This document shows positions 9,313 through 60,633 of a DNA stretch of 64,000 nt, piece by piece. Position 1 is the stretch's first letter; each line of letters opens with the position of its first letter. The translations under genes and the position numbers were made by a program. Source of the DNA: Escherichia coli (lineage in GTDB: Bacteria; Pseudomonadota; Gammaproteobacteria; Enterobacterales; Enterobacteriaceae); NCBI RefSeq assembly GCF_003019035.1, contig NZ_CP027447.1. One strand, written 5' to 3'. The notes beneath the pieces were generated by a model. The model worked only from the letters and a program-made list of their open reading frames with translations. It was not told the DNA's origin and did no database searches.

Positions 9313-9343
9313 ATCAGAAATAACGTAAATCATTAAAAATGTA

Positions 9344-39454: not shown

Positions 39455-39465
39455 GTCACGTCTCT

Positions 39466-42721: not shown

Positions 42722-42923
42722 GATAAAACCTCCCAGTTAATTTATTGTTATAGCAAAACAATTGTTTTACATTTAATCTTCACATCATCCTTGATGATTT
42801 ACTGACGAGAAGCACAAAGGACAATAACAAAAGCCTCCGTGAAGCGGGAGACTTTTTAATAAGTTCGGAAAGCAGATCACAAACAGTAAAAAAATAAACG
42901 TTTATAACTGCCAGATTATTTCG

Positions 42924-43733
42924 TTATTCGCTGATTTCTTTAGGCGTTACACTATTGACAGGTAAATTCTTTGCAATGAGATAGCGATAAATCGCCGCAC
43001 CAACACATGCCCCAATGATCGGTGCAATAATGGGTACAATGAAATAAGGAATATTGCGTCCACCAGTCATCGCAATTTCCCCCCAACCCGCAAACCAGGT
43101 GAAAATTTTAGGTCCAAAATCACGCGCTGGATTCATGGCAAAACCGGTTAATGGTCCGGTAGAAGCACCAATAACAGCAACCAGAATACCAATGAGTAAA
43201 GGCGCAAGCGGTCCTTTGGGTACGCCATTACCGTCATCGGTCAACGCCATAATCAACCCCATTAACATGGACGTTATGACCACTTCGACCAACGCAGCTT
43301 GCCATACATTAATCGCCGCTGCTGGATAAGTACTGAAGATACTGGCGAGTTGTAAACTTTCTGCGCTACCACGCACTATATTGTGAGCCGATTCAAAATC
43401 GGTAAACAAACTGCTGTAGAGAGAATATGCCAGAACCGCACCACCAAAGGCACCCGCTAATTGCGCCACACAAAATGGCAGCACTTTACGGGCTGGGAAA
43501 GAGGCAAACAGCCACAGAGCAATGGTAACTGCCGGGTTGAGATGAGCGCCGGAAATACCTGCCGTAAGGTAAACAGCAAGCGAAATCCCTAACCCCCATA
43601 TGATACAAATTTCCCACAGTCCCAGACTTGCCCCGGCAACTTTCAGGGCGCACAAACAACCAATGCCAAAAAAGAGGAACAGTCCGGTGCCCAAAAACTC
43701 GGCAACGCATTGCGCCTTGAGTGAATCATTCAT
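42924..43733 (-). CDS. pduF: Propanediol diffusion facilitator (MIP/aquaporin family)
   Basis: Two NPA motifs (HLNPAVT, AMNPARD); divergent from pduA. Confidence 0.8.
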   Translation of the reverse strand: MNDSLKAQCVAEFLGTGLFLFFGIGCLCALKVAGASLGLWEICIIWGLGISLAVYLTAGISGAHLNPAVTIALWLFASFPARKVLPFCVAQLAGAFGGAVLAYSLYSSLFTDFESAHNIVRGSAESLQLASIFSTYPAAAINVWQAALVEVVITSMLMGLIMALTDDGNGVPKGPLAPLLIGILVAVIGASTGPLTGFAMNPARDFGPKIFTWFAGWGEIAMTGGRNIPYFIVPIIAPIIGACVGAAIYRYLIAKNLPVNSVTPKEISE

Positions 43734-44244
43734 AGTGACACCTTCTTTACGGAGTTTTTCTTTATCAGCCAACTATGCGCTGATTGTTGTGTATACCGAG
43801 CGCAACTATAAAAAATTGCTCTGCAGAAAATATTGCCAACATGCATGACAGACTCGTGTAAAAATCGTGCTAACATAACAAATTATTGTCATTGCCGAAT
43901 CATGCAACACAGCGTTAATCAGTGTTGAAAGTAATAATTCCCACCAAACTTTTACAGTAAAAAATTGCCATCATGACATAATAAAATTGAAACAAATATC
44001 ACAGTTCCTTCCTCGAACCAAACTCAACGAAATATTACTCGCGATTAAACTCACTAGACAACGCAATTAATTCACATTGAAACATCCACAAAATAACCAA
44101 TAAATTAATAACATATAGTTCATAAAAGCAATTTTATAATATTTGTTCTCTATTAATTTTTCTCATTAGCCGATTAAGTCAGCCATTCTTTTTCCTCGCT
44201 TTTTTTTATAGTCATATCGTCAAAAAAATCCAGGCGAGGTCTTT
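43734..44244. promoter_or_regulatory. pduF-pduA divergent control region (AT-rich, ~510 bp)
   Basis: Long AT-rich intergenic region between divergent operons. Confidence 0.5.
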
Positions 44245-44529
44245 ATGCAACAAGAAGCGTTAGGAATGGTAGAAACCAAAGGCTTAACTGCCGCCATAGA
44301 GGCCGCGGACGCCATGGTGAAGTCGGCAAATGTTTTGCTGGTCGGCTACGAAAAAATAGGTTCCGGGCTGGTGACCGTCATCGTTCGTGGTGATGTCGGG
44401 GCGGTAAAAGCGGCAACAGACGCAGGTGCCGCAGCTGCGCGTAACGTCGGCGAAGTAAAAGCCGTGCACATTATTCCCCGCCCACATACCGATGTCGAAA
44501 AAATCTTACCAAAGGGAATTAACCCATGA
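44245..44529 (+). CDS. pduA: BMC-H shell protein
   Basis: 94 aa; canonical BMC domain [30 protein letters not shown]. Confidence 0.85.
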
Positions 44530-45338
44530 GCAGCAATGAACTGGTCGAACAGATCATGGCGCAGGTCATCGCTCGCGTAGCGACGCCAGAGTATGAGGTT
44601 CTCCCGAAAACCACTCATCAAATACGAGAGACGGCTATGGCAGAAAAAAGCTGCACGTTAACAGAATTTGTTGGCACCGCTATTGGCGACACTGTAGGTC
44701 TGGTCATTGCGAACGTTGATAGCGCCCTGTTGGACGCAATGAAACTTGAAAAACGCTATCGTTCCATTGGCATTCTGGGTGCGCGTATTGGCGCAGGTCC
44801 ACACATTATGGCCGCTGATGAAGCGGTAAAAGCCACCAACACTGAAGTTATTAGCATTGAACTTCCTCGCGATACTAAAGGCGGTGCCGGACACGGCTCA
44901 TTGATCCTCTTAGGTGGCAACGATGTTTCCGACGTGAAACGCGGTATTGAAGTTGCCCTGAAAGAACTCGATCGAACCTTTGGCGATGTCTATGCCAACG
45001 AAGCCGGACATCTTGAGCTGCAATATACCGCCCGCGCCAGCTATGCACTGGAAAAAGCGTTTGGTGCACCATTGGGACGGGCTTGCGGCGTTATTGTCGG
45101 CGCTCCAGCCGCTGTGGGTGTTCTGATGGCCGACACCGCGCTGAAGTCCGCCAATGTGGATGTCGTGGCATACAGCTCCCCCGCTCAAGGCACCAGCTAC
45201 AGCAACGAAGTCATTCTGATTATCTCGGGTGACTCCGGCGCGGTCCGCCAGGCGGTCATCTCCGCACGCGAAATCGGTAAAACCGTGCTTTCGACTCTCG
45301 GCGATACACCGAAAAACGATCGCCCTTCCTACATCTGA
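44526..45338 (+). CDS. pduB: Tandem-BMC-domain shell protein
   Basis: 270 aa; gene order. Confidence 0.8.
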
Positions 45339-45356
45339 ATTCTCTGAGGCAGATTT

Positions 45357-47021
45357 ATGAGATCGAAAAGATTTGAAGCACTGGCAAAACGCCCGGTCAA
45401 CCAGGACGGTTTCGTTAAAGAGTGGATTGAAGAAGGCTTCATTGCGATGGAAAGCCCGAACGATCCTAAACCGTCAATCAAAATTGTTAACGGCGTCGTT
45501 ACCGAACTGGATGGAAAACCCGCCAGTCAGTTTGACCTGATCGACCACTTTATCGCCCGCTACGGCATCAATCTCGCGCGCGCAGAAGAAGTCATCGCGA
45601 TGGATTCGGTAAAACTTGCCAATATGTTGTGCGATCCAAATGTCAAACGTAGCGATATCGTTCCCCTTACCACAGCAATGACGCCTGCAAAAATCGTCGA
45701 AGTGGTTTCGCAGATGAACGTGGTAGAGATGATGATGGCGATGCAGAAAATGCGCGCCCGTCGAACACCATCACAACAGGCTCACGTCACCAACATCAAA
45801 GATAACCCGGTACAAATTGCCGCCGACGCAGCTGAAGGCGCATGGCGCGGGTTTGATGAACAGGAAACCACCGTTGCCGTTGCTCGCTATGCACCGTTCA
45901 ACGCCATCGCCCTGCTGGTCGGCTCACAGGTGGGACGTCCGGGCGTCTTGACCCAGTGTTCACTGGAAGAAGCCACCGAACTGAAACTCGGTATGTTAGG
46001 CCACACCTGTTACGCCGAAACAATTTCTGTCTATGGTACAGAACCTGTTTTCACCGATGGCGATGATACCCCGTGGTCAAAAGGATTTCTCGCGTCATCC
46101 TATGCGTCTCGCGGCTTAAAAATGCGCTTTACTTCCGGCTCCGGCTCTGAAGTACAGATGGGTTACGCGGAAGGCAAATCAATGCTTTATCTCGAGGCTC
46201 GATGCATTTACATCACCAAAGCCGCAGGCGTTCAGGGTCTGCAGAATGGTTCGGTAAGCTGCATCGGTGTTCCATCAGCTGTGCCATCAGGCATCCGCGC
46301 AGTATTAGCGGAAAACTTAATTTGCTCATCGCTGGATCTGGAATGCGCCTCCAGTAATGACCAGACCTTTACCCACTCGGATATGCGCCGTACCGCACGT
46401 TTCCTGATGCAATTTCTGCCAGGTACCGACTTTATCTCTTCCGGTTTTTCCGCTGTGCCGAACTACGACAACATGTTTGCTGGTTCAAACGAAGATGCTG
46501 AAGACTTCGATGATTACAACGTCATTCAGCGTGACCTGAAGGTTGATGGCGGGCTGCGACCAGTACGCGAAGAAGATGTTATCGCAATCCGCAATAAAGC
46601 CGCTCGCGCTTTACAGGCTGTCTTTGCCGGTATGGGACTACCGCCAATTACCGATGAAGAAGTCGAAGCGGCAACCTATGCCCACGGTTCGAAAGATATG
46701 CCTGAGCGCAATATTGTGGAAGACATCAAGTTCGCCCAGGAGATTATCAATAAAAACCGTAACAGCCTGGAAGTGGTGAAAGCCCTGGCGCAAGGCGGTT
46801 TTACCGATGTCGCCCAGGACATGCTCAACATGCAAAAAGCAAAACTGACCGGCGATTATCTCCATACCTCAGCCATCATCGTCGATGACGGACAAGTGCT
46901 CTCAGCGGTCAATGACATCAATGATTACGCAGGGCCAGCTACAGGTTACCGCCTGCAAGGGGAACGCTGGGAAGAGATCAAAAATATTCCCGGTGCACTT
47001 GATCCCAACGAAATTGACTAA
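45357..47021 (+). CDS. pduC: B12-dependent diol dehydratase large subunit
   Basis: 554 aa; MRSKRFEALAKRPVNQDGFVKEWIEEG... signature. Confidence 0.9.
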   Translation: MRSKRFEALAKRPVNQDGFVKEWIEEGFIAMESPNDPKPSIKIVNGVVTELDGKPASQFDLIDHFIARYGINLARAEEVIAMDSVKLANMLCDPNVKRSDIVPLTTAMTPAKIVEVVSQMNVVEMMMAMQKMRARRTPSQQAHVTNIKDNPVQIAADAAEGAWRGFDEQETTVAVARYAPFNAIALLVGSQVGRPGVLTQCSLEEATELKLGMLGHTCYAETISVYGTEPVFTDGDDTPWSKGFLASSYASRGLKMRFTSGSGSEVQMGYAEGKSMLYLEARCIYITKAAGVQGLQNGSVSCIGVPSAVPSGIRAVLAENLICSSLDLECASSNDQTFTHSDMRRTARFLMQFLPGTDFISSGFSAVPNYDNMFAGSNEDAEDFDDYNVIQRDLKVDGGLRPVREEDVIAIRNKAARALQAVFAGMGLPPITDEEVEAATYAHGSKDMPERNIVEDIKFAQEIINKNRNSLEVVKALAQGGFTDVAQDMLNMQKAKLTGDYLHTSAIIVDDGQVLSAVNDINDYAGPATGYRLQGERWEEIKNIPGALDPNEID

Positions 47022-47030
47022 GGGTGAGAA

Positions 47031-47699
47031 ATGGAAATTAACGAAAAATTACTGCGTCAGATTATCGAAGGCGTGCTGGCAGAAATGCAAACCAGCGACA
47101 AGTCCGTTTCATTTCGTGCACCTGTCTCTGCAACTGTCTCTTCAGTGCCAGATACCGGAAATTTTCTGACCGAAATTGGCGAAGCCCAACAAGGCACTCA
47201 GCAAGATGAAGTCATTATTGCTGTAGGCCCGGCGTTCGGCCTGGCGCAAACCGTCAATATCATCGGTATTCCGCATAAAAACATTTTGCGCGAAGTGATT
47301 GCCGGTATCGAAGAAGAAGGCATTAAAGCCCGTGTGATTCGCTGCTTTAAATCGTCCGATGTCGCATTCGTAGCAGTCGAAGGAGATCGTCTTAGTGGTT
47401 CAGGTATTGCTATCGGTATTCAGTCGAAAGGCACAACGGTTATCCACCAGCAGGGACTTCCTCCCTTGTCTAACCTGGAACTTTTCCCACAAGCGCCTTT
47501 GTTGACGCTGGATACTTATCGTCAGATTGGCAAAAACGCCGCGCGTTATGCGAAGCGCGAGTCTCCACAACCGGTGCCGACCCTCAACGATCAAATGGCA
47601 CGACCGAAATACCAGGCCAAATCTGCCATTTTGCATATTAAAGAGACGAAGTACGTGGTCACTGGCAAAAAACCGCAAGAACTGCGCGTGACGTTTTAA
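47031..47699 (+). CDS. pduD: Diol dehydratase medium subunit
   Basis: 222 aa; order and size. Confidence 0.85.
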
Positions 47700-47713
47700 C
47701 AAAGGAAACCTTC

Positions 47714-48232
47714 ATGAATACCGATGCAATTGAGTCGATGGTCAGGGACGTGTTGAACCGCATGAACAGTTTACAGGATGCAGCTCCTGTTTCTGCGGTC
47801 CCCAGCGCGTCAATACAGAGCGCCAAAGTGACGGATTACCCGCTGGCAAATAAACATCCGGAATGGGTTAAAACAGCAACCAATAAAACGCTCGACGATT
47901 TCACTCTGGAAAATGTGCTAAGCGATAACGTCACCGCCCAGGATATGCGCATTACCCCTGAAACATTGCGTATTCAGGCTGCGATTGCCAGAGATGCTGG
48001 TCGCGATCGCCTGGCGATGAATTTCGAACGCGCCGCTGAGCTTACCTCAGTACCGGATGATCGCATCCTCGAAATCTACAATGCGTTACGCCCTTATCGT
48101 TCGACTAAGCAAGAACTTATTGCCATTGCTGACGATCTTGAACGGCGTTATCAGGCCAAAATTTGTGCTGCATTTGTCCGTGAAGCTGCGGAACTTTATG
48201 TCGAGCGCAAAAAACTGAAAGGCGACGATTAA
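47714..48232 (+). CDS. pduE: Diol dehydratase small subunit
   Basis: 172 aa; order and size. Confidence 0.85.
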   Translation: MNTDAIESMVRDVLNRMNSLQDAAPVSAVPSASIQSAKVTDYPLANKHPEWVKTATNKTLDDFTLENVLSDNVTAQDMRITPETLRIQAAIARDAGRDRLAMNFERAAELTSVPDDRILEIYNALRPYRSTKQELIAIADDLERRYQAKICAAFVREAAELYVERKKLKGDD

Positions 48233-48241
48233 GGACGAACT

Positions 48242-50074
48242 ATGCGATATATAGCAGGCATTGATATCGGCAACTCATCAACAGAGGTTGCGCTGGCAAC
48301 GCTCAGTGCAACTGGAGAGTTGTCGTTCGTGAGTAGCGCCCTGGCGGAAACCACCGGAATTAAAGGTACGTTGCGTAACGTCCATGGTATTCAGGAGGCG
48401 CTCGCACAGGCAACGAAAAAAGTCGGCATCAATGTTAGCGATATTTCGCTTATTCGTATCAACGAAGCAACTCCGGTCATTGGTGATGTGGCGATGGAAA
48501 CCATCACTGAAACTATCATCACCGAATCAACCATGATCGGTCACAACCCGAAAACGCCGGGCGGAGTGGGGCTGGGCGTAGGGCTCACCATCACTCCGCA
48601 AGAGTTATTAACATGCCCGGCGGACACACCCTACATTCTGGTGGTGTCATCGGCATTTGATTTTGCCGATATCGCAACAATGATAAACGCCTCCGTACGA
48701 GCCGGATATCAGCTGACTGGCGTTATTCTGCAACGCGACGATGGCGTGCTGGTCAGTAACCGACTGGAAATCCCTTTACCCATTGTTGATGAAGTCCTCT
48801 ACATCGATCGAATACCGCTCGGCATGCTGGCTGCAATTGAAGTTGCCGTTCCTGGGAAAGTTATCGAAACCCTGTCTAACCCGTATGGGATTGCCACCGT
48901 TTTCGCCCTCAATGCTGAAGAGACTAAAAATATTGTTCCTGTCGCGCGGGCGCTAATCGGCAACCGTTCAGCAGTGGTAGTGAAAACGCCTTCTGGCGAC
49001 GTTAAAGCCCGTTCGATACCCGCCGGAAATATCGAACTGCTTTCTGCCGGGCGCACAACGCGGGTTGATGTAGCTGCTGGTGCCGATGCCATTATGAAAG
49101 CGGTCGGTGAGTGCCCAAAACTGGAAAACGTGACGGGAGAACCTGGCTCCAACATCGGCGGAATGCTGGAACATGTTCGCCAGACCATGGCTGAGCTGAC
49201 CAACAAACCCAGCAACGAAATTTTTATTCAGGATTTGCTGGCGATAGATACCTCTGTCCCCGTCAACGTAACCGGTGGTCTGGCAGGTGAATTTTCACTG
49301 GAACAGGCTGTGGGTATTGCCTCTATGGTGAAATCCGACCGTCTGCAAATGGCGATGATCGCCAGTGAAATTAAGCAAAAACTACATGTTGATGTTCAGG
49401 TCGGAGGCGCAGAAGCAGAAGCCGCCATTCAGGGGGCCTTGACTACCCCTGGAACGACACGTCCACTGGCAATTCTGGACTTAGGTGCAGGCTCTACCGA
49501 TGCCTCCATCATCAATCAGAAAGGGGAAATAGTTGCCACTCACCTTGCGGGAGCGGGCGACATGGTAACGATGATTATCGCTCGTGAGCTGGGCTTAAAT
49601 GATCGTTATCTGGCAGAAGAAATCAAAAAGTACCCGTTGGCAAAAGTAGAAAGCCTGTTCCACTTACGCCATGAAGATGGCAGCGTTCAGTTCTTCCCTA
49701 CTCCCCTATCCCCTCATGTATTTGCCCGCGTTTGTGTGGTGAAACCTGACGAACTGGTGCCTATTCCCGGTGATTTGACGCTGGAAAAAGTACGCGCTGT
49801 CCGTCGTAGTGCGAAAGAGCGTGTCTTCGTAACTAATGCCCTGCGCGCGCTACGTCAGGTAAGCCCTGCAGGAAATATTCGCGACATTCCGTTCGTCGTT
49901 CTGGTGGGTGGTTCTTCGCTGGATTTCGAAGTACCGCAATTGGTCACCGACGCGCTGGCACATTATCGACTGGTCGCCGGGCGGGGGAATATCCGTGGTA
50001 GCGAAGGTCCGCGCAATGCGGTAGCTACTGGGCTCCTCATCGCCTGGCACAAGGAGTCGATTCATGGAAAGTAA
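48242..50074 (+). CDS. pduG: Diol dehydratase reactivase large subunit
   Basis: 610 aa; order. Confidence 0.85.
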   Translation: MRYIAGIDIGNSSTEVALATLSATGELSFVSSALAETTGIKGTLRNVHGIQEALAQATKKVGINVSDISLIRINEATPVIGDVAMETITETIITESTMIGHNPKTPGGVGLGVGLTITPQELLTCPADTPYILVVSSAFDFADIATMINASVRAGYQLTGVILQRDDGVLVSNRLEIPLPIVDEVLYIDRIPLGMLAAIEVAVPGKVIETLSNPYGIATVFALNAEETKNIVPVARALIGNRSAVVVKTPSGDVKARSIPAGNIELLSAGRTTRVDVAAGADAIMKAVGECPKLENVTGEPGSNIGGMLEHVRQTMAELTNKPSNEIFIQDLLAIDTSVPVNVTGGLAGEFSLEQAVGIASMVKSDRLQMAMIASEIKQKLHVDVQVGGAEAEAAIQGALTTPGTTRPLAILDLGAGSTDASIINQKGEIVATHLAGAGDMVTMIIARELGLNDRYLAEEIKKYPLAKVESLFHLRHEDGSVQFFPTPLSPHVFARVCVVKPDELVPIPGDLTLEKVRAVRRSAKERVFVTNALRALRQVSPAGNIRDIPFVVLVGGSSLDFEVPQLVTDALAHYRLVAGRGNIRGSEGPRNAVATGLLIAWHKESIHGK

Positions 50075-50414
50075 AGAGCGTGCACCAGCCATCGTTGTCA
50101 TGGAGATCGGTGACTGTATCACTACATGGGATGAAGTGCTTCTTGGCATTGAAGAGGAAGGTATTCCCTTTCGCATTCAACACATTCCGTCAGGTGAAGT
50201 TATCGATAGCGCCTGGCTGGCGGCTCGTCAATCTCCCCTGTTGGTTGGCATTGCCTGCGATCAGGAAAAACTGATTGTGCATTACAAAAACTTACCGGCA
50301 TCAGCGCCACTGTTTACGCTGATGTATCAACAAGATAACCATGACAGGCGCAGCATCGGCACTAACGCTGCCCGCCTGGTAAAAGGAATTCCCTTCCGGG
50401 AACTCCACTCATAA
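50064..50414 (+). CDS. pduH: Diol dehydratase reactivase small subunit
   Basis: 116 aa; overlaps pduG end. Confidence 0.8.
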
Positions 50415-50433
50415 TCCACAGGAGAAACGCAGT

Positions 50434-50709
50434 ATGAACAACGCACTAGGACTGGTTGAAACAAAAGGGTTAGTTGGCGCAATTGAAGCTGCAGATGCCA
50501 TGGTTAAATCCGCCAACGTGCAGCTGGTTGGCTATGAAAAGATTGGTTCGGGTCTGATTACGGTGATGGTCCGTGGCGATGTTGGCGCAGTAAAAGCCGC
50601 CGTTGATGCAGGAAGCGCCGCCGCAAGCGCCGTTGGCGAAGTGAAATCCTGCCATGTCATCCCGCGCCCACACAGTGATGTTGAGGCTATTTTACCTAAA
50701 TCAGCATAA
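50434..50709 (+). CDS. pduJ: BMC-H shell protein
   Basis: 91 aa; near-identical to PduA core. Confidence 0.85.
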
Positions 50710-50732
50710 CCCCATTCGCTAAGGAGCACAGC

Positions 50733-51155
50733 GTGAAGCAATCACTGGGATTACTTGAAGTCAGTGGTCTGGCACTCGCCATCAGTTGCGCAGATGCTAT
50801 GGCAAAAGCCGCGTCCATCACGCTGGTTGGCCTTGAGAAGACCAATGGCTCAGGCTGGACGCTCATCAAAATCACCGGTGACGTCGCCTCGGTTAATGCG
50901 GCGATCGCGACGGGAGCCAGTTTCGCCGGACAGCGAAATGGCCTCGTCGCACACAAAGTGATTGCCCGTCCGGGAGACGGCATTCTGCCCCACACAACTG
51001 AAGCATTGACTGTGACGGTTGAAACAAGCGAAACACCAGCAACAACCGTCATCTCAGAGATTATCAGTTGTAATTTGTGTCTTAACCCGGCATGTCAGCG
51101 GCAAAAAGGTGAGCCCCGCTCACTTTGCCTGCACGCCAATAAGCGAGGGGAGTAA
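50733..51155 (+). CDS. pduK: BMC shell protein with C-terminal extension
   Basis: 140 aa; BMC domain plus Cys-containing tail; GTG start. Confidence 0.75.
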   Translation: MKQSLGLLEVSGLALAISCADAMAKAASITLVGLEKTNGSGWTLIKITGDVASVNAAIATGASFAGQRNGLVAHKVIARPGDGILPHTTEALTVTVETSETPATTVISEIISCNLCLNPACQRQKGEPRSLCLHANKRGE

Positions 51156-51157
51156 CA

Positions 51158-51790
51158 GTGGATAAACAAACCTTGCAGGAAACAGTGAGCCAGATTCTGG
51201 ATGAGATGCGCGAGCGCCCTATCCCTCTGGGTGTTTCCAGTCGTCATATTCATCTTTCAACAGCGGATTATTTGCGTCTTTTTCCTGAACAACCGATTAG
51301 CGAGAAAACGCTGTTAATGCAACCTGGCCAATTCGCTGCTGAACAGGTTGTTACGCTGGAGGGACCAAAAGGTAAATTGCACAACGTTCGCTTGTTGGGG
51401 CCGCTACGCAATGCAAGCCAGGTGGAAATTTCCCGTACGGACGCCAGAACGTTAGGGATCACCGCTCCGCTACGCATGTCAGGCGATCTCAGCGGCACTC
51501 CAGGGATTCGTTTGATAAGCCCATTTGCGGAACTGGAGATCACATCTGGCGTCATTGTCGCGCAACGGCATATTCATATGTCTCCGCTGGATGCCCTGAT
51601 TTATGGCGTTACGCATGGCGATAAAGTGGCGGTTGCCATTAAAGGTGATGAGCGACGACTGATATTCGAAAACGTCGCTGTTCGCGTCTCTCCGGATATG
51701 CGTCTTGAAATGCATATTGATACCGATGAAGCCAACGCCGCAGGGGCTGATAGCCCTGACGTTTTTGCCACACTGGTGTCAGTGCCATGA
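51158..51790 (+). CDS. pduL: Phosphate propanoyltransferase
   Basis: 210 aa; order. Confidence 0.8.
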   Translation: MDKQTLQETVSQILDEMRERPIPLGVSSRHIHLSTADYLRLFPEQPISEKTLLMQPGQFAAEQVVTLEGPKGKLHNVRLLGPLRNASQVEISRTDARTLGITAPLRMSGDLSGTPGIRLISPFAELEITSGVIVAQRHIHMSPLDALIYGVTHGDKVAVAIKGDERRLIFENVAVRVSPDMRLEMHIDTDEANAAGADSPDVFATLVSVP

Positions 51791-52278
51791 ATAACATGCT
51801 GATGCAACGTATTGTTGACGAAGTGGTTTTTCGCCTTAAACAACGTGCGGGAAAAACACTCGTGCTGACTGTTTTTCAACTGCGAGACGCCAGCGTTCAA
51901 GAGATAGTTCATCAGTATGCATCATTACAAATCCGATATGTCGATCTGCCGTTGTTACGACAACTTGCGGAGAACAAAACGTCAGATCGAGCAGCAATTC
52001 AGATACACGAAACGTTAGCCTGGGGATTGCACATTCAATTGTCGTTGCAGCGTCATTTCCTGAACGCCATTGAATTGAAGACTCTCGCCCGTCTACCGCT
52101 AAGCTGGTGCGACGAGCAAGGGCAACCGATCTACCTTCATCGTGATCGACTTTTAAATTATGCCGATATTGCACAGTTAAGCTCGGGAATACTGGTGTTA
52201 CAGCGAAAATGTTGTGTGACCGCACTGGCTCGTGAAGCGGCAATTACCCGAAATATTCAGTTAATCAGGCAGGAGTAA
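51787..52278 (+). CDS. pduM: Microcompartment structural protein
   Basis: 163 aa; order. Confidence 0.7.
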   Translation: MNNMLMQRIVDEVVFRLKQRAGKTLVLTVFQLRDASVQEIVHQYASLQIRYVDLPLLRQLAENKTSDRAAIQIHETLAWGLHIQLSLQRHFLNAIELKTLARLPLSWCDEQGQPIYLHRDRLLNYADIAQLSSGILVLQRKCCVTALAREAAITRNIQLIRQE

Positions 52279-52281
52279 CCT

Positions 52282-52557
52282 ATGCATCTGGCTCGAGTCA
52301 CTGGCGCGGTAGTATCCACGCAAAAATCACCTTCTCTGATCGGGAAAAAACTGCTGCTGGTTCGCCGGGTCAGTGCTGACGGCGAACTGCCTCTCACGCC
52401 ATTAACCGGCGACGAAGTTGCCGTTGATTCCGTCGGCGCAGGCGTTGGTGAGTTGGTACTCCTCAGCAGTGGTTCCAGCGCCAGACATGTGTTTTCCGGC
52501 CCTAACGAAGCCATCGACCTAGCAGTGGTCGGCATTGTCGATACGCTTTCGCGCTAA
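52282..52557 (+). CDS. pduN: BMC vertex (pentamer) protein
   Basis: 91 aa; EutN/CcmL-like. Confidence 0.8.
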
Positions 52558-52568
52558 GGAGCTGAAAG

Positions 52569-53576
52569 ATGGCAATTTATACCCGAACAGGTGATTCAGG
52601 AAGTACGTCTTTATTTACCGGACAGCGCGTCAGCAAAACTCATCTACGTGTCGAAACCTATGGCACGCTGGATGAACTGAACGCGACACTCAGTCTGTGT
52701 TATTGCGCCACCGCCATCGAAAGCCATCGCATCTTACTGGAAGCCATTCAACAACAGATATTTTGGTTTAGCGCCGAACTCGCCAGTGAAAGCGAACAGC
52801 CGTCAGCGCAGCAGCGTTACATCGGTACGGAAGAAATTGCCGCGCTGGAAAACGCGATCGATAGCGCAATGAACGCCGTCCCCCCGGTTCACAGCTTCAT
52901 TCTGCCTGGTCGATGTGAAGCTGCAAGCCGCATGCATTTCGCCCGCACGGTGGCTCGACGGGCTGAAAGACGTCTGGTTGAACTGACAACAGAAACCACC
53001 GTCCGGAATGTTTTGCTGCACTATATCAACCGACTTTCCGATTGCCTGTATGCCCTCGCCCGCGTGGAAGACAACGTTGCTCATCAAAACCTGATGATTC
53101 AGGAAATCACAAAACGTTATCACGAAGCCAACCACACACCAGCATTGAAGGAACGCACAATGCCGCTCACTTTTCAGGATCTTCACCAGCTCATTCGTAG
53201 TGCGGCAATGCGCGCAGATGAACTGCATATTCCCGTTGTCATCAGCATTGTTGATGCCAACGGAACAGAAAGTGTTACCTGGCGGATGCCTGATGCCCTG
53301 TTGGTCAGCAGTGAACTGGCACCGAAAAAAGCCTGGACCGCCGTGGCGATGAAAACGGCAACCCACAAACTTGCTGATACCGTGCAACCCGGCGCGCCGC
53401 TTTACGGGCTCGAAAGCCATATGCAAGGCAAAGTCGTCACTTTTGGTGGCGGCTTCCCCCTCTGGCGTGACGGAAAATTGCTTGGCGGGCTTGGCATCAG
53501 CGGCGGTAGCGTTGAACAAGACATGGATATTGCCCAAAGCGCAATGGCGGCAATTAACGTGGGAGTAAACCAATGA
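52569..53576 (+). CDS. pduO: ATP:cob(I)alamin adenosyltransferase
   Basis: 335 aa; N-terminal PduO-type ATR domain. Confidence 0.85.
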   Translation: MAIYTRTGDSGSTSLFTGQRVSKTHLRVETYGTLDELNATLSLCYCATAIESHRILLEAIQQQIFWFSAELASESEQPSAQQRYIGTEEIAALENAIDSAMNAVPPVHSFILPGRCEAASRMHFARTVARRAERRLVELTTETTVRNVLLHYINRLSDCLYALARVEDNVAHQNLMIQEITKRYHEANHTPALKERTMPLTFQDLHQLIRSAAMRADELHIPVVISIVDANGTESVTWRMPDALLVSSELAPKKAWTAVAMKTATHKLADTVQPGAPLYGLESHMQGKVVTFGGGFPLWRDGKLLGGLGISGGSVEQDMDIAQSAMAAINVGVNQ

Positions 53577-54958
53577 ATAACTCTGAATTAGAAACACTGA
53601 TCCGCAATATTCTGCGTGAGCAGCTTGCCCCCGCTACGCAACGAGCGCAAAGAAACGCTATTTTCCAGACTGTTGATGAAGCGGTCTGCGCAGCACACCA
53701 GGCCTTTTTACGCTTTCAACAGTGCCCGCTTAAAACCCGTAGCGCCATTATCAGCGCCATTCGCGAAGAATTAATGCCCCGCCTTACCGAACTGGCAGAA
53801 GAAAGCGCCAGTGAAACAGGGATGGGAAATAAAGAGGATAAGTATCTAAAGAACAAAGCAGCACTCAATAATACGCCAGGAATTGAAGATTTAACCACCA
53901 CTGCACTAACCGGTGATGGTGGCATGGTTTTGTTTGAATACTCTCCGTTTGGGGTCATTGGCTCGGTCACGCCAAGCACCAACCCCACGGAAACCATCAT
54001 TAACAACAGCATCAGCATGCTGGCAGCAGGTAATAGCGTCTACTTCAGTCCACACCCGGGAGCCAAAAACGTTTCGTTAAAACTGATTACCATAATCGAA
54101 GACATCGCGTTTCGCTGTAGTGGCATTCATAACCTGATCGTTACCGTATCTGAACCGACCTTTGCTGCTACCGAACAGATGATGGCGCACCCTAAAATCA
54201 GCGTTCTGGCGATTACCGGTGGCCCGGGGATCGTCGCCATGGGAATGAAAAGTGGCAAGAAAGTGATTGGTGCCGGTGCGGGTAACCCACCCTGCATTGT
54301 CGATGAAACGGCGGATATTGTGAAAGCCGCCGAGGACATCATCAACGGCGCTTCATTTGATTACAACCTACCGTGTATCGCTGAAAAAAGCCTGATTGTC
54401 GTGGCGTCAGTGGCAGAGTATTTAATTCAACAGATGCAAAGCTTTGGCGCACTTCTTCTTAACCATGAACAAACGGAGAAATTGCGTGCAATTTGCCTGC
54501 CAGACGGTAGCGCCAACAAAAAACTGGTTGGGAAAAGCCCATCAGCCTTGCTGGAAGCGGCAGGCCTCCCTTTGCCCGCAAAAGCGCCGCGCCTACTGAT
54601 TGCTGTTGTCGACGCCAATGATAGTTGGGTTACTTGTGAACAACTGATGCCAATGCTGCCCATTGTGAAGGTCAACGATTTTGATAGCGCTCTCACCCTG
54701 GCGCTGAAAGTGGAAGACGGCTTGCACCACACGGCAATTATGCACTCGCAGAACGTCTCACGGCTCAACCTTGCCGCACGCGTTATGCAAACCTCAATCT
54801 TTGTCAAAAACGGCCCCTCCTGGGCGGGCATTGGCGTCGGCGGCGAAGGCTTTACCACCTTTACCATTGCAACACCGACCGGAGAAGGGACAACGTCAGC
54901 ACGGACTTTTGCCCGCTCACGACGCTGCGTGTTAACCAGCGGCTTTTCAATTCGCTAG
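53573..54958 (+). CDS. pduP: CoA-acylating propionaldehyde dehydrogenase
   Basis: 461 aa; aldehyde dehydrogenase fold. Confidence 0.85.
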   Translation: MNNSELETLIRNILREQLAPATQRAQRNAIFQTVDEAVCAAHQAFLRFQQCPLKTRSAIISAIREELMPRLTELAEESASETGMGNKEDKYLKNKAALNNTPGIEDLTTTALTGDGGMVLFEYSPFGVIGSVTPSTNPTETIINNSISMLAAGNSVYFSPHPGAKNVSLKLITIIEDIAFRCSGIHNLIVTVSEPTFAATEQMMAHPKISVLAITGGPGIVAMGMKSGKKVIGAGAGNPPCIVDETADIVKAAEDIINGASFDYNLPCIAEKSLIVVASVAEYLIQQMQSFGALLLNHEQTEKLRAICLPDGSANKKLVGKSPSALLEAAGLPLPAKAPRLLIAVVDANDSWVTCEQLMPMLPIVKVNDFDSALTLALKVEDGLHHTAIMHSQNVSRLNLAARVMQTSIFVKNGPSWAGIGVGGEGFTTFTIATPTGEGTTSARTFARSRRCVLTSGFSIR

Positions 54959-54968
54959 AGAAACGGAA

Positions 54969-56081
54969 ATGAATACTTTTTCACTGCAGACGCGTTTATA
55001 CAGCGGACCAGGAAGTCTCAAGGTACTTAGCCGTTTCTCTCATAGACACATCTGGATTATTTGCGATGCCTTTCTGGCACACTCACCACTCATTGACACG
55101 TTGCATCAGGCGCTGCCCGACAGTAATCGTCTCAGTATTTTTAGCGAAATAACGCCCGACCCAACTATCCAGACCGTGGTGAAAGGCATTGCGCAAATGC
55201 AGACTTTACGCCCGGATGTGGTTATCGGTTTTGGCGGCGGTTCTGCCCTGGACGCCGCAAAAGCGATTGTCTGGTTTGGTCGCCAGTGTGGCATTGAAAT
55301 TGAAACCTGCGTAGCCATTCCTACCACCAGCGGTACCGGTTCCGAAGTGACCAGTGCTTGTGTCATCAGCGATTCTGAGAAAGGGATTAAATTTCCCCTT
55401 TTCGATAATGCACTTTATCCGGATATCGCGATCCTTGATCCATCTTTGGTCGTCAGCGTGCCACCGGCGATAACGGCCAATACCGGGATGGATGTTTTAA
55501 CCCATGCACTTGAAGCTTATGTTTCTCCCCGCGCCAGCGACTTCACGGATGCACTGGTCGAAAAAGCCGTGCAAATTGTTTTTCAATACCTGCCCACTGC
55601 AGTGAAGAAAGGCGATTGTCTTGCCACCCGTGGCAAAATGCATAATGCATCGACGCTTGCAGGAATAGCCTTTAGCCAGGCCGGACTCGGTTTAAACCAT
55701 GCAATTGCTCATCAACTCGGCGGACAGTTTCATCTGCCGCACGGCCTGGCGAATGCGCTCCTGCTCACGGCAGTTATCCGCTTTAATGCTGGCGATCCGC
55801 GCACAGCCAAACGCTATGCCCGGCTGGCGAAAACGTGCCATTTATGCCCGGACAACGCCAATGACACCGCCAGCCTGAATGCACTTATTCAACATATTGA
55901 GCAGCTTAAAACAACCTGTACGCTGCCGACTCTTACCAATGCGCTGAAAGAAAAAAAAGCAGAATGGTCAGTTCGCATACCAGATATGGTTCAGGCGGCA
56001 CTGGCGGATGCAACGTTGCGTACCAACCCGCGTGCGGCTGATGCTTCCGCGATTGCAGAACTGCTCGAGGAGTTGTTATGA
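54969..56081 (+). CDS. pduQ: 1-propanol dehydrogenase (iron-containing ADH)
   Basis: 370 aa; GGGS...D motif region. Confidence 0.85.
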   Translation: MNTFSLQTRLYSGPGSLKVLSRFSHRHIWIICDAFLAHSPLIDTLHQALPDSNRLSIFSEITPDPTIQTVVKGIAQMQTLRPDVVIGFGGGSALDAAKAIVWFGRQCGIEIETCVAIPTTSGTGSEVTSACVISDSEKGIKFPLFDNALYPDIAILDPSLVVSVPPAITANTGMDVLTHALEAYVSPRASDFTDALVEKAVQIVFQYLPTAVKKGDCLATRGKMHNASTLAGIAFSQAGLGLNHAIAHQLGGQFHLPHGLANALLLTAVIRFNAGDPRTAKRYARLAKTCHLCPDNANDTASLNALIQHIEQLKTTCTLPTLTNALKEKKAEWSVRIPDMVQAALADATLRTNPRAADASAIAELLEELL

Positions 56082-57421
56082 ATGTCGGATTAACCTCCTG
56101 CGACGACCAGACCATCCGCGAGCGAGTACAAGCAGCAGGTGTCGTGGGTGCTGGCGGCGCAGGTTTTCCAACCCATATTAAGCTACAAGCGCGTGTTGAC
56201 ACGTTCCTGGTGAATGCGGCGGAATGCGAACCCATGTTGAAAGTGGATCAACAGTTAATGGCGCAGCAAGCCAGCCGCCTGCTTCGCGGTGTTCACTATG
56301 CGATGAAAGCCACCGGGGCCAGTAGCGGAATCATCGCGCTGAAAGAGAAATATCAACTGGCAATAAACGCACTCACCCCCCTATTACCACCGGATATCCG
56401 CCTGCATATTTTGCCCGACGTTTACCCCGCAGGAGACGAAGTGCTGACCATCTGGATGGCAACTGGTCGCCGCGTTCCACCCGCTGCATTACCCGTTAGC
56501 GTCGGTGTGGTGGTCAATAATGTTCAAACCGTACTTAATATTGCCAGAGCCGTCGAGCAACAGTATCCAGTGACGCGCCGCACACTCACTATTAATGGTG
56601 CAGTGGCGAAACCAATAACGGTAACCGTCCCCATCGGCATGTCTTTACGTGAAGTCCTGGCGCTGGCGGGCGGCGCAACAGTAGATGCTCCTGGTTTTAT
56701 CAATGGCGGGCCGATGATGGGAAGTTTGATCACATCGCTCGACACACCCGTCAGCAAAACCACTGGCGGCTTGCTGGTTTTACCCAACTCTCATTCACTG
56801 ATCCAACGTCGAATGCAGAATGACCGCAGCGTACTTACCGTCGCGAAAACTGTTTGTGAGCAATGCCGCTTGTGTACCGATCTCTGCCCACGTCATTTAG
56901 TCGGTCACGAACTGGCACCCCATTTATTAGTACGTGCGGTTAACTACCAACAGCTCGCTACGCCACAACTGTTACTGACGGCGCTCACCTGTTCGGAGTG
57001 CAACGTCTGCGCCAGCGTCGCCTGTCCGGTAGGAATTTCACCAATGCGCATAAACCGCCTGCTTAAGCAGGAATTACGCGCACAAAATCTCCGCTACGAA
57101 GGTGCTTTAAATCCTGCAGATCCCTTGGCAAATTATCGACTGATTCCCGTAAAACGGCTGGTAACCAGACTGGGCTTAACCCCGTGGTATCAGGATGCGC
57201 CATTGTCTGAACAGGTGCCTCAGCCCGAAAAAGTGACGTTATTGTTACGCCAGCACATCGGTGCCAGCGCAATTGCGTGTGTACAAAAAGGCGATCGCGT
57301 CGTTCATGGGCAATGTGTAGGTCAAATTCCACACGGCACATTAGGTGCCCCCATTCATGCCAGTATTGATGGCATGGTCAGCGATGTGACAGAAAACGCG
57401 ATTACGCTTGTGAGAGGTTAA
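56078..57421 (+). CDS. pduS: Cobalamin reductase (Fe-S flavoprotein)
   Basis: 447 aa; two CxxCxxCxxxCP ferredoxin-like motifs. Confidence 0.85.
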
Positions 57422-57423
57422 CG

Positions 57424-57978
57424 ATGTCGAAAGCGGTAGGTATTTTAGAACTTAGCAGTATCGCGAAAGGGATGGAAACCGGCGACGCCATGCTGAAAAG
57501 CGCCAACGTTGAGTTACTGGTCAGCAAAACGCTATGCCCCGGAAAATTTCTGCTGATGCTCGGTGGCGATGTGAGCGCGGTGCAACAGGCCATCAACAGC
57601 GGTGCTTCCCTTGCTGGTGAAATGCTGGTCGACAGTCTTGTCCTGCCGAATATTCATCCCAGTCTCCTTTCTGCAATCAGCGGACTGAACCATGTTGAGC
57701 AGCACCGGGCTGTCGGCGTAGTCGAAACCTGGAGTGTCGCTGCCTGCATTGACGCTGCCGATTGTGCTGTCAAAGCTGCGAATGTCATTCTCGTTCGCGT
57801 GCATATGGCTTTTGGCATTGGCGGAAAATGCTACATGGTGGTTGCTGGCGATATTTCAGATGTTAATAACGCGGTCTCTGTCGCCAGCGAGCGTGCGGGA
57901 GAAAAAGGTTTGTTGGTCTATCGGTCGGTGATTGCCCGTCCACATGAAGCCATGTGGCGTCAGATGGTGGAGGGATAA
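57424..57978 (+). CDS. pduT: Tandem-BMC shell protein
   Basis: 184 aa; order. Confidence 0.8.
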
Positions 57979-58328
57979 TGACAACTCAGCACACAACTGA
58001 ACGGATGATTCAGGAATATGTCCCTGGTAAGCAGGTCACGCTGGCACATGTCATCGCCAATCCTGGGAAGGATCTGTTTAAGAAATTGGGTTTACCAGAC
58101 ACCGTTTCTGCTATTGGCATTCTGACGATTACCCCCAGCGAAGCATCTATCATCGCATGCGATATCGCCACAAAATCAGGCGCTGTAGAGATCGGTTTTC
58201 TTGATCGTTTTACCGGTGCCGTAGTGCTGACTGGTGATGTTTCAGCCATTGAATATGCACTTAGCCAGGTTACCCGTACGCTGGGTGAAATGATGCGCTT
58301 TACCGCCTGCCCCATTACGCGGACCTGA
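57978..58328 (+). CDS. pduU: BMC shell protein (permuted)
   Basis: 116 aa from MTTQHTT; order. Confidence 0.8.
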
Positions 58329-58332
58329 CGTT

Positions 58333-58776
58333 ATGCAACGTATGATGCTTATCGGCCCCAGCCAGTGCGGAAAAACGTCACTCACGCAATGTCTGCGTGG
58401 CGAAAATATTCATTATCAGAAAACGCAGGCAATCGTCTGGTCCCCGACCACCATTGATACACCAGGCGAATACCTCGAAAACCGCAGCCTCTACAGTGCA
58501 TTGTTGGTCAGTGCCTGCGAAGCAGACATTATCGCGCTGGTACTTAATGCGGGCGCACCGTGGTCCCCTTTTTCGCCAGGCTTTACCTCGTCAATGAATC
58601 GTCCGGTCATTGGAGTAGTAACCAAAGCAGATTTAGCCAGCATGGAACAAATATCTTTGGTGAAATGTTGGTTACGGGAAGCTGGAGCGCACAACGTGTT
58701 AGTAACCAGTGCGGTTAATAACAATGGAGTTACAGAACTTTTTGCCTTGCTGCATACAGAAGATGTCTGTCGCTAA
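58333..58776 (+). CDS. pduV: Ras-like GTPase of pdu microcompartment (EutP/PduV family)
   Basis: 147 aa; P-loop [10 protein letters not shown]. Confidence 0.8.
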
Positions 58777-58835
58777 TTTCGATAGGTTATCAGATGGGAA
58801 TGATGACTTTGATACACAGAAAAGAATCAATGAGC

Positions 58836-58864
58836 AATGAGGGTTGCCGGGCAACCCTCATTGA
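58836..58864. terminator. Bidirectional terminator between pduV and yeeX
   Basis: Perfect 14-bp stem caatgagggttgcc / ggcaaccctcattg, A/T runs on both sides. Confidence 0.6.
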
Positions 58865-58876
58865 ATAAAACAGGAA

Positions 58877-59206
58877 TTACTTCGCTTCGCCGTTTTTCAT
58901 TTCGCCCATAGCTTTCAGCTTTTTGGAGATATCGCGGCGTTCTTTGGAGAGCTCGGCATTTTTGATGATGTAATCGTCAACGCGATCTTCATAGTCACCT
59001 TTCATGCTGGCGATGATGCCCTGGATTGCTTCAACGCTCATCCCTGGCTTGATGTAATCGCTCAGGTTGTCCAGCAACAGGACGCGCTTCTGGTTGTCAC
59101 GGATCTTTTTCTCAACGTCCTGAATTTCACGTTGCAGTTTGTTCTTACGACGGAACAGACGAACAAATTCCAGTACGTCCTGGAATGAAGGCTTGGTAGT
59201 TTCCAT
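58877..59206 (-). CDS. yeeX: DUF496-family protein
   Basis: 109 aa from [30 protein letters not shown]... Confidence 0.8.
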
Positions 59207-59377
59207 TTTTATACCCCTGATAATGTGAGAGTCGGATTCGTTTAAGCAACCGCTATTCGTTAGGGCCAACATTACTCATAGCTGCCGCAGATGACAATGC
59301 TTTTATCCCTTTTCACTATCATACCCTTTATCCTTGCTGAATCGAAGCAGCAGCAAGATGATTCTGAAGTTCAGGAA

Positions 59378-60436
59378 TTATTTGCGCAAGGCCCGGCAAA
59401 TCAGACTCGATAGCAACTCAAGCTGATGTGCCGTTTCCATGTTCAGCCACACATAACCATAGATTGGTGTTTCCACAACCTTCAGGTCATGGTGGTTATT
59501 CAGCAACTGACGCAGCTCTTCCACAGCATCGTTCAATTTTTCCGTATTGGCAAAAACCGGCTGCGGATTACCTTCGTACAGCGCATGAACAAGGCTCAGC
59601 AGTATTTGCTGCATCATGTGCTGGGTATCACGAAGTTTTTGCGCGTTCAATAACACGAAATGGCTGGGGCGCGTGGCCCAGTATGCATTGATTTGCAACT
59701 CCAGCATACAAACCAGATTGCGATTAATGGTCTGGATACCTTCATATATCGATTTTGGAATACGGGTTTCTTTGCTGGCGGGCGCAATCAGCCCACGCAT
59801 TTTCACGGCATCGGTCAGCAGTTTTTGTAGATGGCTTTCCAGACGTGGGCGTTCGAGTAAGTTCGGTGAGAATGCCGATTGATAGACCCGATTATACTCG
59901 GTCAGACTTTTCGCCAGTTGAATGCGCCAGTGGATGAACGCGCGTTGTGGCCAGATACCGGTAAACAACATTGCCAGTAAAGAGCCGAGGATCACATCGC
60001 CGCTTCGCCATAACGCCGTATCAATTTCACCTGTCGGGGAACCCACAACAATTGCCAGCGTCACCCCAATCAATAATCCTTGATACGGTTTCTTGCCCAG
60101 CGCCAGCCAACCGCAAAGAAACATCGCCGCCGCGCACCAGACTAACATCAGCGGTAACGAGATTAATTCCAGTTGCAGAGCGATAAGACCTAAAATCGAA
60201 CCCAACACCGTACCGCCAATACGTTCGAAGGCACGAGGGACAACGTTACCCCAGAACGAGATTGGCCCCATAATCACCACCATGGTGACCAGCGGCCAGG
60301 TACTTTCCGGGATAGTAAACAGGCGGATAATGAGAAAAGTGAGCAGGAATGCCAGCGCGACCCGAGTACCATGCACAATGCGGTAATGGCGGTATACCCG
60401 GATTTCAAACGGGCTTAATGACTTATCGGCACGCAC
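59378..60436 (-). CDS. yeeA: FUSC-family inner membrane protein
   Basis: 352-aa polytopic membrane protein; order. Confidence 0.8.
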   Translation of the reverse strand: MRADKSLSPFEIRVYRHYRIVHGTRVALAFLLTFLIIRLFTIPESTWPLVTMVVIMGPISFWGNVVPRAFERIGGTVLGSILGLIALQLELISLPLMLVWCAAAMFLCGWLALGKKPYQGLLIGVTLAIVVGSPTGEIDTALWRSGDVILGSLLAMLFTGIWPQRAFIHWRIQLAKSLTEYNRVYQSAFSPNLLERPRLESHLQKLLTDAVKMRGLIAPASKETRIPKSIYEGIQTINRNLVCMLELQINAYWATRPSHFVLLNAQKLRDTQHMMQQILLSLVHALYEGNPQPVFANTEKLNDAVEELRQLLNNHHDLKVVETPIYGYVWLNMETAHQLELLSSLICRALRK

Positions 60437-60633
60437 GCAGAAACTCCGTAATGAAGATTAAAAGCGCTCATAACTCATCTGTCGGCCAGAAGGCGCGCCT
60501 CTGAATTATCCGACGGACATACCGGGAACAGTGTAATTTCCCGGCAGGAGCGAAAAATTTGAAAGGCGCATCTTACTCTTTTCGCTTCCAAAAAAAGAGT
60601 GGTCATCGCGTTAACACACCGCCCTGAGATGAA

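Follow-up and report, generated by a model that had tools for sequence, protein, structure and literature searches.

A stretch of 64,000 nucleotides of Escherichia coli DNA (assembly GCF_003019035.1, contig NZ_CP027447.1), which we refer to as the window, carries a pdu operon for the B12-dependent breakdown of 1,2-propanediol in a bacterial microcompartment (BMC). The operon is complete from pduA to pduV and stops there, without the pduW and pduX genes that follow pduV in other genera. We conclude with high confidence that this is the native Pdu locus of Escherichia, of the published type PDU1B, in the slot that the locus occupies in Salmonella and Citrobacter (cobUST ... tmaR-yeeA-sbmC-dacD), that a single old deletion removed pduW and pduX, and that the locus would operate by the mechanism outlined below.

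Positions 41000-62000 of the window gave a full-length 100% match to the chromosome of E. coli SCU-301 (NZ_CP051751.1) in a megablast search of 5,426 complete E. coli genomes. Gene names and coordinates are those of the RefSeq annotation of that record, which is identical to the window; gene identities were assessed by NCBIfam and Pfam profile scans beside the RefSeq names. SCU-301 came from a rectal swab of a healthy student, and the window makes up 64 kb of its 5.05-Mb chromosome.

Loss of pduW and pduX is a trait of the genus Escherichia

The end of the operon and its surroundings are arranged as follows.

58333-58776, plus strand: pduV, a EutP/PduV-family GTPase and the last gene of the operon (TIGR02528, 185 bits against a cutoff of 138)
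58777-58876, no strand: spacer of 100 bp, the site of pduW-pduX in other genera (from sequence and fold)
58877-59206, minus strand: tmaR (yeeX), the convergent chromosomal neighbor (NF040881 TmaR, 188.5 bits; synteny)

Beyond tmaR, the order is yeeA, sbmC, and dacD (RefSeq). When PduW and PduX from the Salmonella arizonae locus were used as tblastn queries (E ≤ 1e-5), neither had a match anywhere in the 64-kb window. Given this result and the 100-bp spacer between pduV and tmaR, the claim of the earlier, sequence-only reading of this DNA that the operon ends at pduV with no pduW or pduX is upheld.

For the comparison between species, one genome per species was scanned with PduU and a flank of 10 kb was taken, which yielded 48 loci, and PduV, PduW, PduX, TmaR, YeeA, and SbmC were located in each of them. 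In every genuine Escherichia locus (E. albertii, E. whittamii, two further E. coli-type representatives, and the window), pduV led directly to tmaR, and the pduV-tmaR junction aligned base for base across the Escherichia species. Among the non-Escherichia loci that reached past pduV, all 40+ kept pduV-pduW-pduX except for one (L044), which had pduW only. Carriers of the pduW-pduX pair include many Citrobacter representatives, Salmonella enterica arizonae and diarizonae, the Klebsiella oxytoca group, Phytobacter, Kosakonia, Pseudocitrobacter, Intestinirhabdus, and Tolumonas. The genes tmaR-yeeA-sbmC also follow pduW-pduX in most non-Klebsiella lineages, with tmaR after pduX in Salmonella, Citrobacter, and Phytobacter. 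Since the junction lacking pduW and pduX is common to the Escherichia species while the pair is kept in other genera, the loss of ~2.1 kb is old and genus-wide. The sequence-only reading had implied that the loss was a feature of the strain or its lifestyle; the junction survey and the published description of PDU1B loci contradict this, and the loss emerges instead as a fixed trait of Escherichia rather than a peculiarity of one strain.

One apparent departure from this pattern was set aside. A locus labeled "Escherichia sp. MOD1-EC7003" (L028) was considered as an Escherichia locus bearing pduW and pduX and was rejected: its sequence is 92% identical to that of Klebsiella spallanzanii, it has no tmaR downstream, and by these marks it is a Klebsiella-type locus. 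In a metagenome-assembled genome named "Citrobacter sp. HRGM_Genome_0066," one contig (L003) encodes the N-terminal half of a PduV that is 100% identical to that of E. coli over 70 residues, and a separate contig (L030) has a Citrobacter-type pdu locus with both pduW and pduX. The first contig is likely derived from E. coli, and the bin is probably an E. coli/Citrobacter chimera.

A conserved hairpin may mark the right-hand edge of the deletion

The sequence-only reading had placed a perfect bidirectional terminator with a 14-bp stem at 58836-58864. A hairpin is indeed present, one base to the left, at 58835-58863, where a 14+1+14 palindrome (CAATGAGGGTTGCC-G-GGCAACCCTCATTG) folds into a stem of 13 bp, not 14, with a 3-nucleotide (nt) loop. 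The folding energy of the 100-nt spacer is -31.5 kcal/mol (z = -5.5 relative to shuffled sequences). Of the elements of an intrinsic terminator, the G+C-rich stem-loop was found, and a U-tract 3' of the stem was found on neither strand: the plus strand continues with AAUAAAACAGG, which contains no U-tract, and the minus-strand tail (CUCAUUGAUUCUUUUC) is weakly U-rich. The hairpin was also not called in a terminator scan of the window, a consensus promoter and terminator scan whose calls showed no enrichment over shuffled sequences and were not used as evidence. Because the operon strand lacks a U-tract, the tmaR strand is only weakly U-rich, and the scan made no call, "bidirectional terminator" is an unverified label.

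The stem carries compensatory substitutions in E. whittamii and E. albertii; in E. whittamii, for example, GGGTTG/CAACCC has become GGATTG/CAATCC. Its outer part, CA(A/G)TGAGG, matches the pduX stop codon and hairpin of Citrobacter sedlakii (CAGTGAGG), Salmonella (CAGTGAGA), and Citrobacter braakii (CAATAAGG). The outer stem lines up with the hairpin at the pduX stop in these relatives, which suggests that the terminator once shared by pduX and tmaR survives as the Escherichia hairpin, with the end point of the deletion immediately upstream. The positional similarity of the spacer to the pduX region is confined to the hairpin and its stop-codon context. Permissive local alignments of the spacer to six Citrobacter, Salmonella, and Pseudocitrobacter regions detected no nucleotide relics of pduW or pduX above the level of shuffled sequences (best z, ~2), and three-frame translations of five Escherichia spacers detected no protein relics of pduX against eight PduX proteins (z ≤ 1.7). 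An ATGTCT at 58763-58768 was considered as a surviving pduW start (equivalent to ATG TCT in Citrobacter) and was rejected, as the other aligned Escherichia species have no ATGTCT at this position.

pdu-negative E. coli strains carry scars of the operon

The operon was present in 636 of the 5,426 complete E. coli genomes (11.7%), where a pdu-positive genome is one in which at least 80% of pduA-V is covered. We sampled pdu-negative genomes spread across the ranking of the 5,410 genomes with a match; these include K-12, O157:H7, and sequence type 131 (ST131), and they match only the last 174-183 bp of pduV, with a few matching somewhat more or less. The right breakpoint at 58594 is common to most sampled pdu-negative genomes, O157:H7 and ST131 among them, with a few offset by at least several bases. 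Most pdu-negative genomes likewise have the left breakpoint, at 41056, in common.

The arrangement can be followed in K-12 MG1655, which keeps window positions 34988-41056 and 58594-63845 at 97-98% identity, including the end of pduV, the spacer, and the hairpin. The intervening positions, 41057-58593, which hold the rest of a truncated cbiG gene (cbiG', see below), the riboswitch, pocR, pduF, and pduA to most of pduV, are replaced by the cryptic prophage CP4-44. On the left, K-12 homology ends at 41056 within cbiG', so that the 3' part of cbiG' is retained. On the right, the K-12 gene yoeF (positions 18576-18932 of locus L050) contains the last 183 bp of pduV (window positions 58594-58776) and ends 100 bp before tmaR; the Prokaryotic Genome Annotation Pipeline names this stub "EutP/PduV family microcompartment system protein." Thus, yoeF and the "cobalamin biosynthesis protein" stub beside cobU in K-12 are scars of a pdu locus. 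In a few other genomes (H63, H86, and H87), cobU or cbiG' runs straight into the pduV relic, and the CP4-44 island is missing.

Since pdu-negative strains hold relics of both pduV and cbiG', the operon, by then already lacking pduW and pduX, predates the pdu-negative state, and its loss from most E. coli strains came later. The cobU-proximal flank (40600-41056) is 94-95% identical between the window and most pdu-negative strains and 97-100% identical among pdu-positive strains, and this difference suggests two old haplotypes at the locus. These observations invite a broader proposal, namely, that the locus lacking pduW and pduX is ancestral to the genus and occupies the Salmonella/Citrobacter slot, and that nearly all of the ~88% of E. 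coli genomes without it, with the same two scars (cbiG' up to 41056 and the last 183 bp of pduV), descend from a single ancient replacement allele in a long-lived presence/absence polymorphism. We regard the case for this proposal as evenly balanced. If true, it would speak against the classic view that the common ancestor of E. coli and Salmonella lost cob and pdu entirely and that Salmonella regained them from outside; the genus-wide loss and the shared scar breakpoints hint at an old polymorphism and at a vertical, not re-acquired, ancestry of enteric pdu genes.

The scars also bear on whether the operon was imported recently from Salmonella, Citrobacter, or Klebsiella and truncated at pduV as it integrated. 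Carriage by 636 of 5,426 genomes is patchy in the way that is typical of islands, and in E. coli strain 48 (see below) a divergent pdu island of foreign origin, in which a pduW-like kinase lies beside IS66, is indeed present at another chromosomal site. The locus in the window, however, lies in the ancestral slot with the same neighbors as in Salmonella and Citrobacter; its junction recurs identically in E. albertii and E. whittamii; K-12 and other pdu-negative strains hold relics of it at both edges; and no mobility genes flank it. Its proteins are 53-92% identical to those of any non-Escherichia source, with the near-invariant PduJ and PduN excepted. We therefore consider a recent import highly improbable. 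Measured against Citrobacter and Salmonella, identities of the Pdu proteins range from 53 to 100% and bracket those of the flanking YeeA, SbmC, and DacD (74-88%), and the G+C content of the locus (0.47-0.55) is ordinary, both of which fit vertical descent. Vertical inheritance of the locus with one deletion of ~2.1 kb in the Escherichia ancestor is the simplest reading of these alignments.

The operon is intact from pocR to pduV

The sequence-only reading had described a complete 19-gene operon with pocR and pduF between cobU and yeeX, and the profile searches and RefSeq agree with it for every gene. The 19 forward genes (pduABCDEGHJKLMNOPQSTUV) span 44245-58776, with pocR and pduF on the minus strand, and all 21 genes were identified by curated profiles, a check that the reading had itself proposed. 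The genes upstream of pduV are as follows.

41807-42721, minus strand: pocR, AraC-family activator of the pdu/cob regulon (NF047788 PocR equivalog, 553 bits against a cutoff of 500)
42924-43733, minus strand: pduF, MIP-family propanediol diffusion facilitator (TIGR00861 MIP, 224.6 bits; RefSeq name PduF)
43734-44244, no strand: divergent pduF-pduA control region of 511 bp (no open reading frame annotated; putative role by analogy with the Salmonella system)
44245-44529, plus strand: pduA, BMC-H shell protein (best NCBIfam match EutM-like, 124.9 bits; RefSeq name)
44526-45338, plus strand: pduB, BMC-T shell protein (NF011944, 473 bits; RefSeq name)
45357-48232, plus strand: pduC, pduD, and pduE, B12-dependent diol dehydratase, the signature enzyme (by profiles: PduC, NF011979, 1072 bits; PduD, NF011616, 389 bits; PduE, NF011971 equivalog, 357.6 bits; all above curated cutoffs)
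48242-50414, plus strand: pduG and pduH, large and small subunits of the diol dehydratase reactivase (full-length orthologue alignments; PduG, TIGR04491, 960 bits; PduH, no NCBIfam match but Pfam PF02288, E = 2e-31)
50434-51155, plus strand: pduJ, BMC-H shell protein, and pduK, BMC-H with a C-terminal extension (BMC-domain matches)
51158-52557, plus strand: pduL, phosphate propanoyltransferase; pduM; and pduN, BMC-P vertex protein (NCBIfam: PduL, NF011652, 251.7 bits; PduM, NF011957, 240.5 bits; PduN, CcmL/EutN-family matches)
52569-56081, plus strand: pduO, adenosyltransferase; pduP, CoA-acylating propionaldehyde dehydrogenase; and pduQ, 1-propanol dehydrogenase (profiles and RefSeq names: PduO N-terminal domain, TIGR00636, 160.8 bits; PduP, NF011927, 718.6 bits; PduQ, iron-containing alcohol dehydrogenase [Fe-ADH] family matches)
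56078-58328, plus strand: pduS, RnfC-like Fe-S cobalamin reductase; pduT, BMC-T; and pduU, permuted BMC-H, EutS-like (profiles: PduS, TIGR01945, 256.9 bits; PduT, PduT/EutT-type, 154.9 bits; PduU, NF012012, 134.7 bits)

Shell genes of all three classes were found (BMC-H, PduA, PduJ, PduK, and PduU; BMC-T, PduB and PduT; BMC-P, PduN), the metabolosome core of PduP, PduQ, and PduL is complete, and PduGH, PduO, and PduS are present for cofactor maintenance. Each protein from PduG to PduV aligned over its entire length with orthologues from eight other species, among them E. albertii and E. whittamii and members of Citrobacter, Salmonella, Klebsiella, and Phytobacter. Over its full length, PduJ is 97-100% and PduK 60-73% identical to the orthologues of Citrobacter, Salmonella, Klebsiella, and Phytobacter, and PduS is 80-83% identical to the product of the gene in the pduS position in Citrobacter and Salmonella. 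Packing is tight, with intergenic gaps of at most 23 nt and seven overlapping gene pairs, so the plausible sizes and tight spacing that the sequence-only reading had noted are borne out.

This intactness is relevant to the possibility that the locus is a decaying, nonfunctional remnant and that the loss of pduW and pduX was the first step of its erosion. The operon has been deleted in most E. coli strains, the adjoining cbi operon is already a fragment, and cobU has been joined to the pduV relic in several deletion alleles that arose independently (H63, H86, and H87). Against this, the 19 genes, pocR, and pduF are all intact and full length, with no gene of the operon flagged as a pseudogene in the RefSeq annotation; the gene set is kept across three Escherichia species; and E. 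coli strains with the PDU1B type show pduC-dependent growth on 1,2-propanediol and induction of the operon (PMC9220930, PMC6379400). Specifically, a pduC deletion mutant of E. coli CUMT8 does not grow on 1,2-propanediol (PMC9220930), and in E. coli LF82, whose pdu gene table ends at pduV, most of the genes are induced by bile salts, with pduU and pduV being exceptions (PMC6379400). Decay is therefore very unlikely.

Two features of the minus-strand genes' surroundings were also recorded. The pduF-pduA control region contains one promoter-like match at 44077-44106 on the plus strand, from the scan that showed no enrichment over shuffled sequences. In the 202-bp pocR-pduF spacer, on the strand opposite both genes, lies a full-length match to the Rfam enterobacterial small RNA STnc230 (42782-42865, plus strand; 76.3 bits against a gathering score of 50), which overlaps a terminator-like hairpin called at 42856-42829 on the minus strand, just downstream of pduF.

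Only the salvage end of B12 synthesis remains beside the operon

Three further features lie on the minus strand between the pdu genes and the left part of the window.

38375-40751, minus strand: cobT-cobS-cobU, the nucleotide-loop assembly (salvage) end of the B12 pathway (RefSeq)
40885-41322, minus strand: cbiG' remnant, an open reading frame of 145 amino acids (NCBIfam NF004463, E = 1.4e-20; "hypothetical protein" in RefSeq)
41541-41715, minus strand: cobalamin riboswitch aptamer, the leader of the former cbi-cob operon (Rfam RF00174, 109.4 bits, model positions 1-189; RefSeq)

CobU matches NF004469 with 247 bits against a cutoff of 161. The first 119 residues of the cbiG' product match the N-terminal 126 of the 351 positions of the cobalt-precorrin-5A hydrolase CbiG, with a score far below the cutoff for full-length proteins. 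The region that contains the riboswitch (40600-42000) is at least 80% covered in 643 of the 5,426 E. coli genomes. Since the riboswitch lies upstream of cbiG'-cobUST on the same strand, cobUST sits downstream of the old cob leader in pdu-positive strains; and since cbiG' begins at the CbiG start codon, rather than cbiA following the leader as expected, at least two internal deletions are implied. The earlier description of the neighborhood as having kept cobUST and lost the cbi genes is therefore correct for cobUST and nearly so for cbi, of which the 5' fragment of cbiG and the riboswitch are left.

PduX, an L-threonine kinase, supplies the L-threonine phosphate that goes into the aminopropanol linker when B12 is synthesized de novo (as cited in PMC7181861). 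With nothing left of the pathway but the salvage steps of CobUST, there is no obvious task for PduX here, and it is reasonable to suppose that the losses of pduX and of the cbi genes are linked.

Farther to the left, at ~7800-27000, the tRNA-Asn gene at 7813-7888, one of four in the window, precedes genes for a tyrosine integrase, a second protein with an integrase domain, an RHS core protein (~13642-17421), and a 2,660-residue protein with Ig-like domains (~19024-27006). This region looks like a tRNA-Asn-associated genomic island that is unrelated to pdu.

Housekeeping kinases could stand in for PduW

The sequence-only reading had called for a search for pduW and pduX beyond the locus and had held that the cell relies on housekeeping kinases for propionyl-phosphate. 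In a sensitive blastn search with Citrobacter pduW-pduX DNA, no pduX was detected in any of the 5,426 complete E. coli genomes, SCU-301 included. The pduW matches in the same genomes were limited to 63 bp of tdcD, in six genomes, and to one kinase gene in strain 48, an unrelated strain and the only one in which a pduW-like gene was found.

These counts address the idea that pduW and pduX have moved elsewhere in the genome. With 64 kb in the window out of a chromosome of 5.05 Mb, there is room for relocation, yet the genome-wide nucleotide search, with SCU-301 in it, returned nothing beyond the matches just described, and a search of a published pdu-positive Crohn's isolate found TdcD as the only PduW homologue, at 44% identity (PMC7360682). 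The chance of relocation is next to nil.

The kinase of E. coli strain 48 belongs to the acetate/propionate family and shares 75.5% nucleotide identity with Citrobacter pduW. The strain came from deer feces and has a 5.9-Mb chromosome, on which a divergent pdu operon (NZ_CP166879.1, 5,246,959-5,272,121; L055) lies at a different site. There, pduV is followed by the pduW-like kinase gene and then by fragments of the insertion sequences IS66, IS21, and IS4, and pduX is absent. This second, divergent operon appears to be an island acquired horizontally.

Candidates for the kinase step are at hand in the window's own strain, since ackA-pta is annotated in SCU-301 at 1,645,742-1,649,163. In the E. 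coli genomes as a whole, ackA is present in 5,424 of 5,426 and tdcD in 5,391 of 5,426. PduW and AckA are reported to be redundant in Salmonella (Palacios et al., 2003). The near-universal ackA and tdcD fit the proposed reliance on housekeeping kinases, and AckA and/or TdcD may replace PduW, a substitution that we infer. In Salmonella, PduW and PduX are cytosolic and are not components of the compartment (PMC7181861); thus, the Escherichia operon keeps all compartment-associated genes and is without two cytosolic ones.

A proposed mechanism and its weak points

By analogy with the Salmonella system and from the gene content, the locus is predicted to function in SCU-301 as follows. In the presence of propanediol, PocR would activate the divergent pduF and pduA-V transcripts, and PduF would admit propanediol. 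A shell would be built of PduA, PduB, PduJ, PduK, PduN, PduT, and PduU, together with PduM, and within it PduCDE with adenosyl-B12 would convert propanediol to propionaldehyde. This would be turned into propionyl-CoA by PduP and into 1-propanol by PduQ, and PduL would then yield propionyl-phosphate. PduGH, PduO, and PduS would keep the cofactor active, with PduV presumably associated with the compartment. The PduW step, from propionyl-phosphate to propionate and ATP, could be carried out by cytosolic AckA and/or TdcD, or propionyl-CoA could enter the methylcitrate cycle. As to history, a deletion of ~2.1 kb in the Escherichia ancestor would have begun immediately behind pduV and halted just short of the pduX stop codon and its terminator hairpin, and the remaining operon would later have been lost in most E. 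coli lineages.

Several points weigh against this account of a native, working locus shaped by one deletion. The right-hand boundary of the deletion depends on a short similarity of ~16 nt. The replacement of PduW by AckA and/or TdcD draws on enzyme family and on Salmonella genetics. The salvage-only view of B12 supply applies to the neighborhood of the operon. Finally, given that 88% of E. coli genomes are without the operon, selection for it is evidently weak or niche specific.

The operon has been widely studied, through pduC, as a fitness or virulence marker of adherent-invasive E. coli in Crohn's disease. For the engineering of Pdu compartments in E. coli, it is of practical interest that the Pdu systems native to this species manage with no dedicated propionate kinase.

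Comparison with known Pdu loci

The pdu operon of Salmonella enterica and Citrobacter (pduA-X, type PDU1A) resembles the locus in the window in the order of pocR-pduF and of pduA to pduV and in the neighboring tmaR-yeeA-sbmC-dacD, and the same pathway and shell are expected of both. The window locus differs from it in having neither pduW nor pduX and in having no cbi genes except for the 5' fragment of cbiG and the riboswitch; the terminal pduW and pduX and the full adjacent cbi operon that mark PDU1A are therefore both missing.

The window agrees instead with PDU1B, as described by Axen, Erbilgin, and Kerfeld in 2014. Loci of this type have all pdu homologues of PDU1A "except for PduX and PduW," they encode cobSTU with the rest of cob not colocalized, and their carriers include E. 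coli E24377A, LF82, and UMN026 and Shigella sonnei (PMC4207490, supplement); the absence of PduW from PDU1B loci is also given in the main text (PMC4207490). In the window we found the corresponding content: PduCDE, shell proteins, core enzymes, and PocR/PduF, with no pduW or pduX and with cobUST adjacent. Since this gene content was published in 2014, the absence of pduW and pduX was already known, and the finding is not new but a correct rediscovery of a described locus type; what the junction survey adds to it, as a by-product, is the age and the genus-wide extent of the loss. The likeness extends to the neighbors, as PDU1B loci share with the window the same gene set, the adjacency of cobSTU, and the nearby ldtA (YkuD-type) and LysR-type regulator genes (nac and cbl). 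Residues 28-245 of the window PduP are 98-99% identical to the PDU1B PduP of UMN026 and E24377A. There is no difference of substance between the window and PDU1B loci, and the window diverges from them no more than pdu alleles of E. coli usually do from one another (2-3% of nucleotides).

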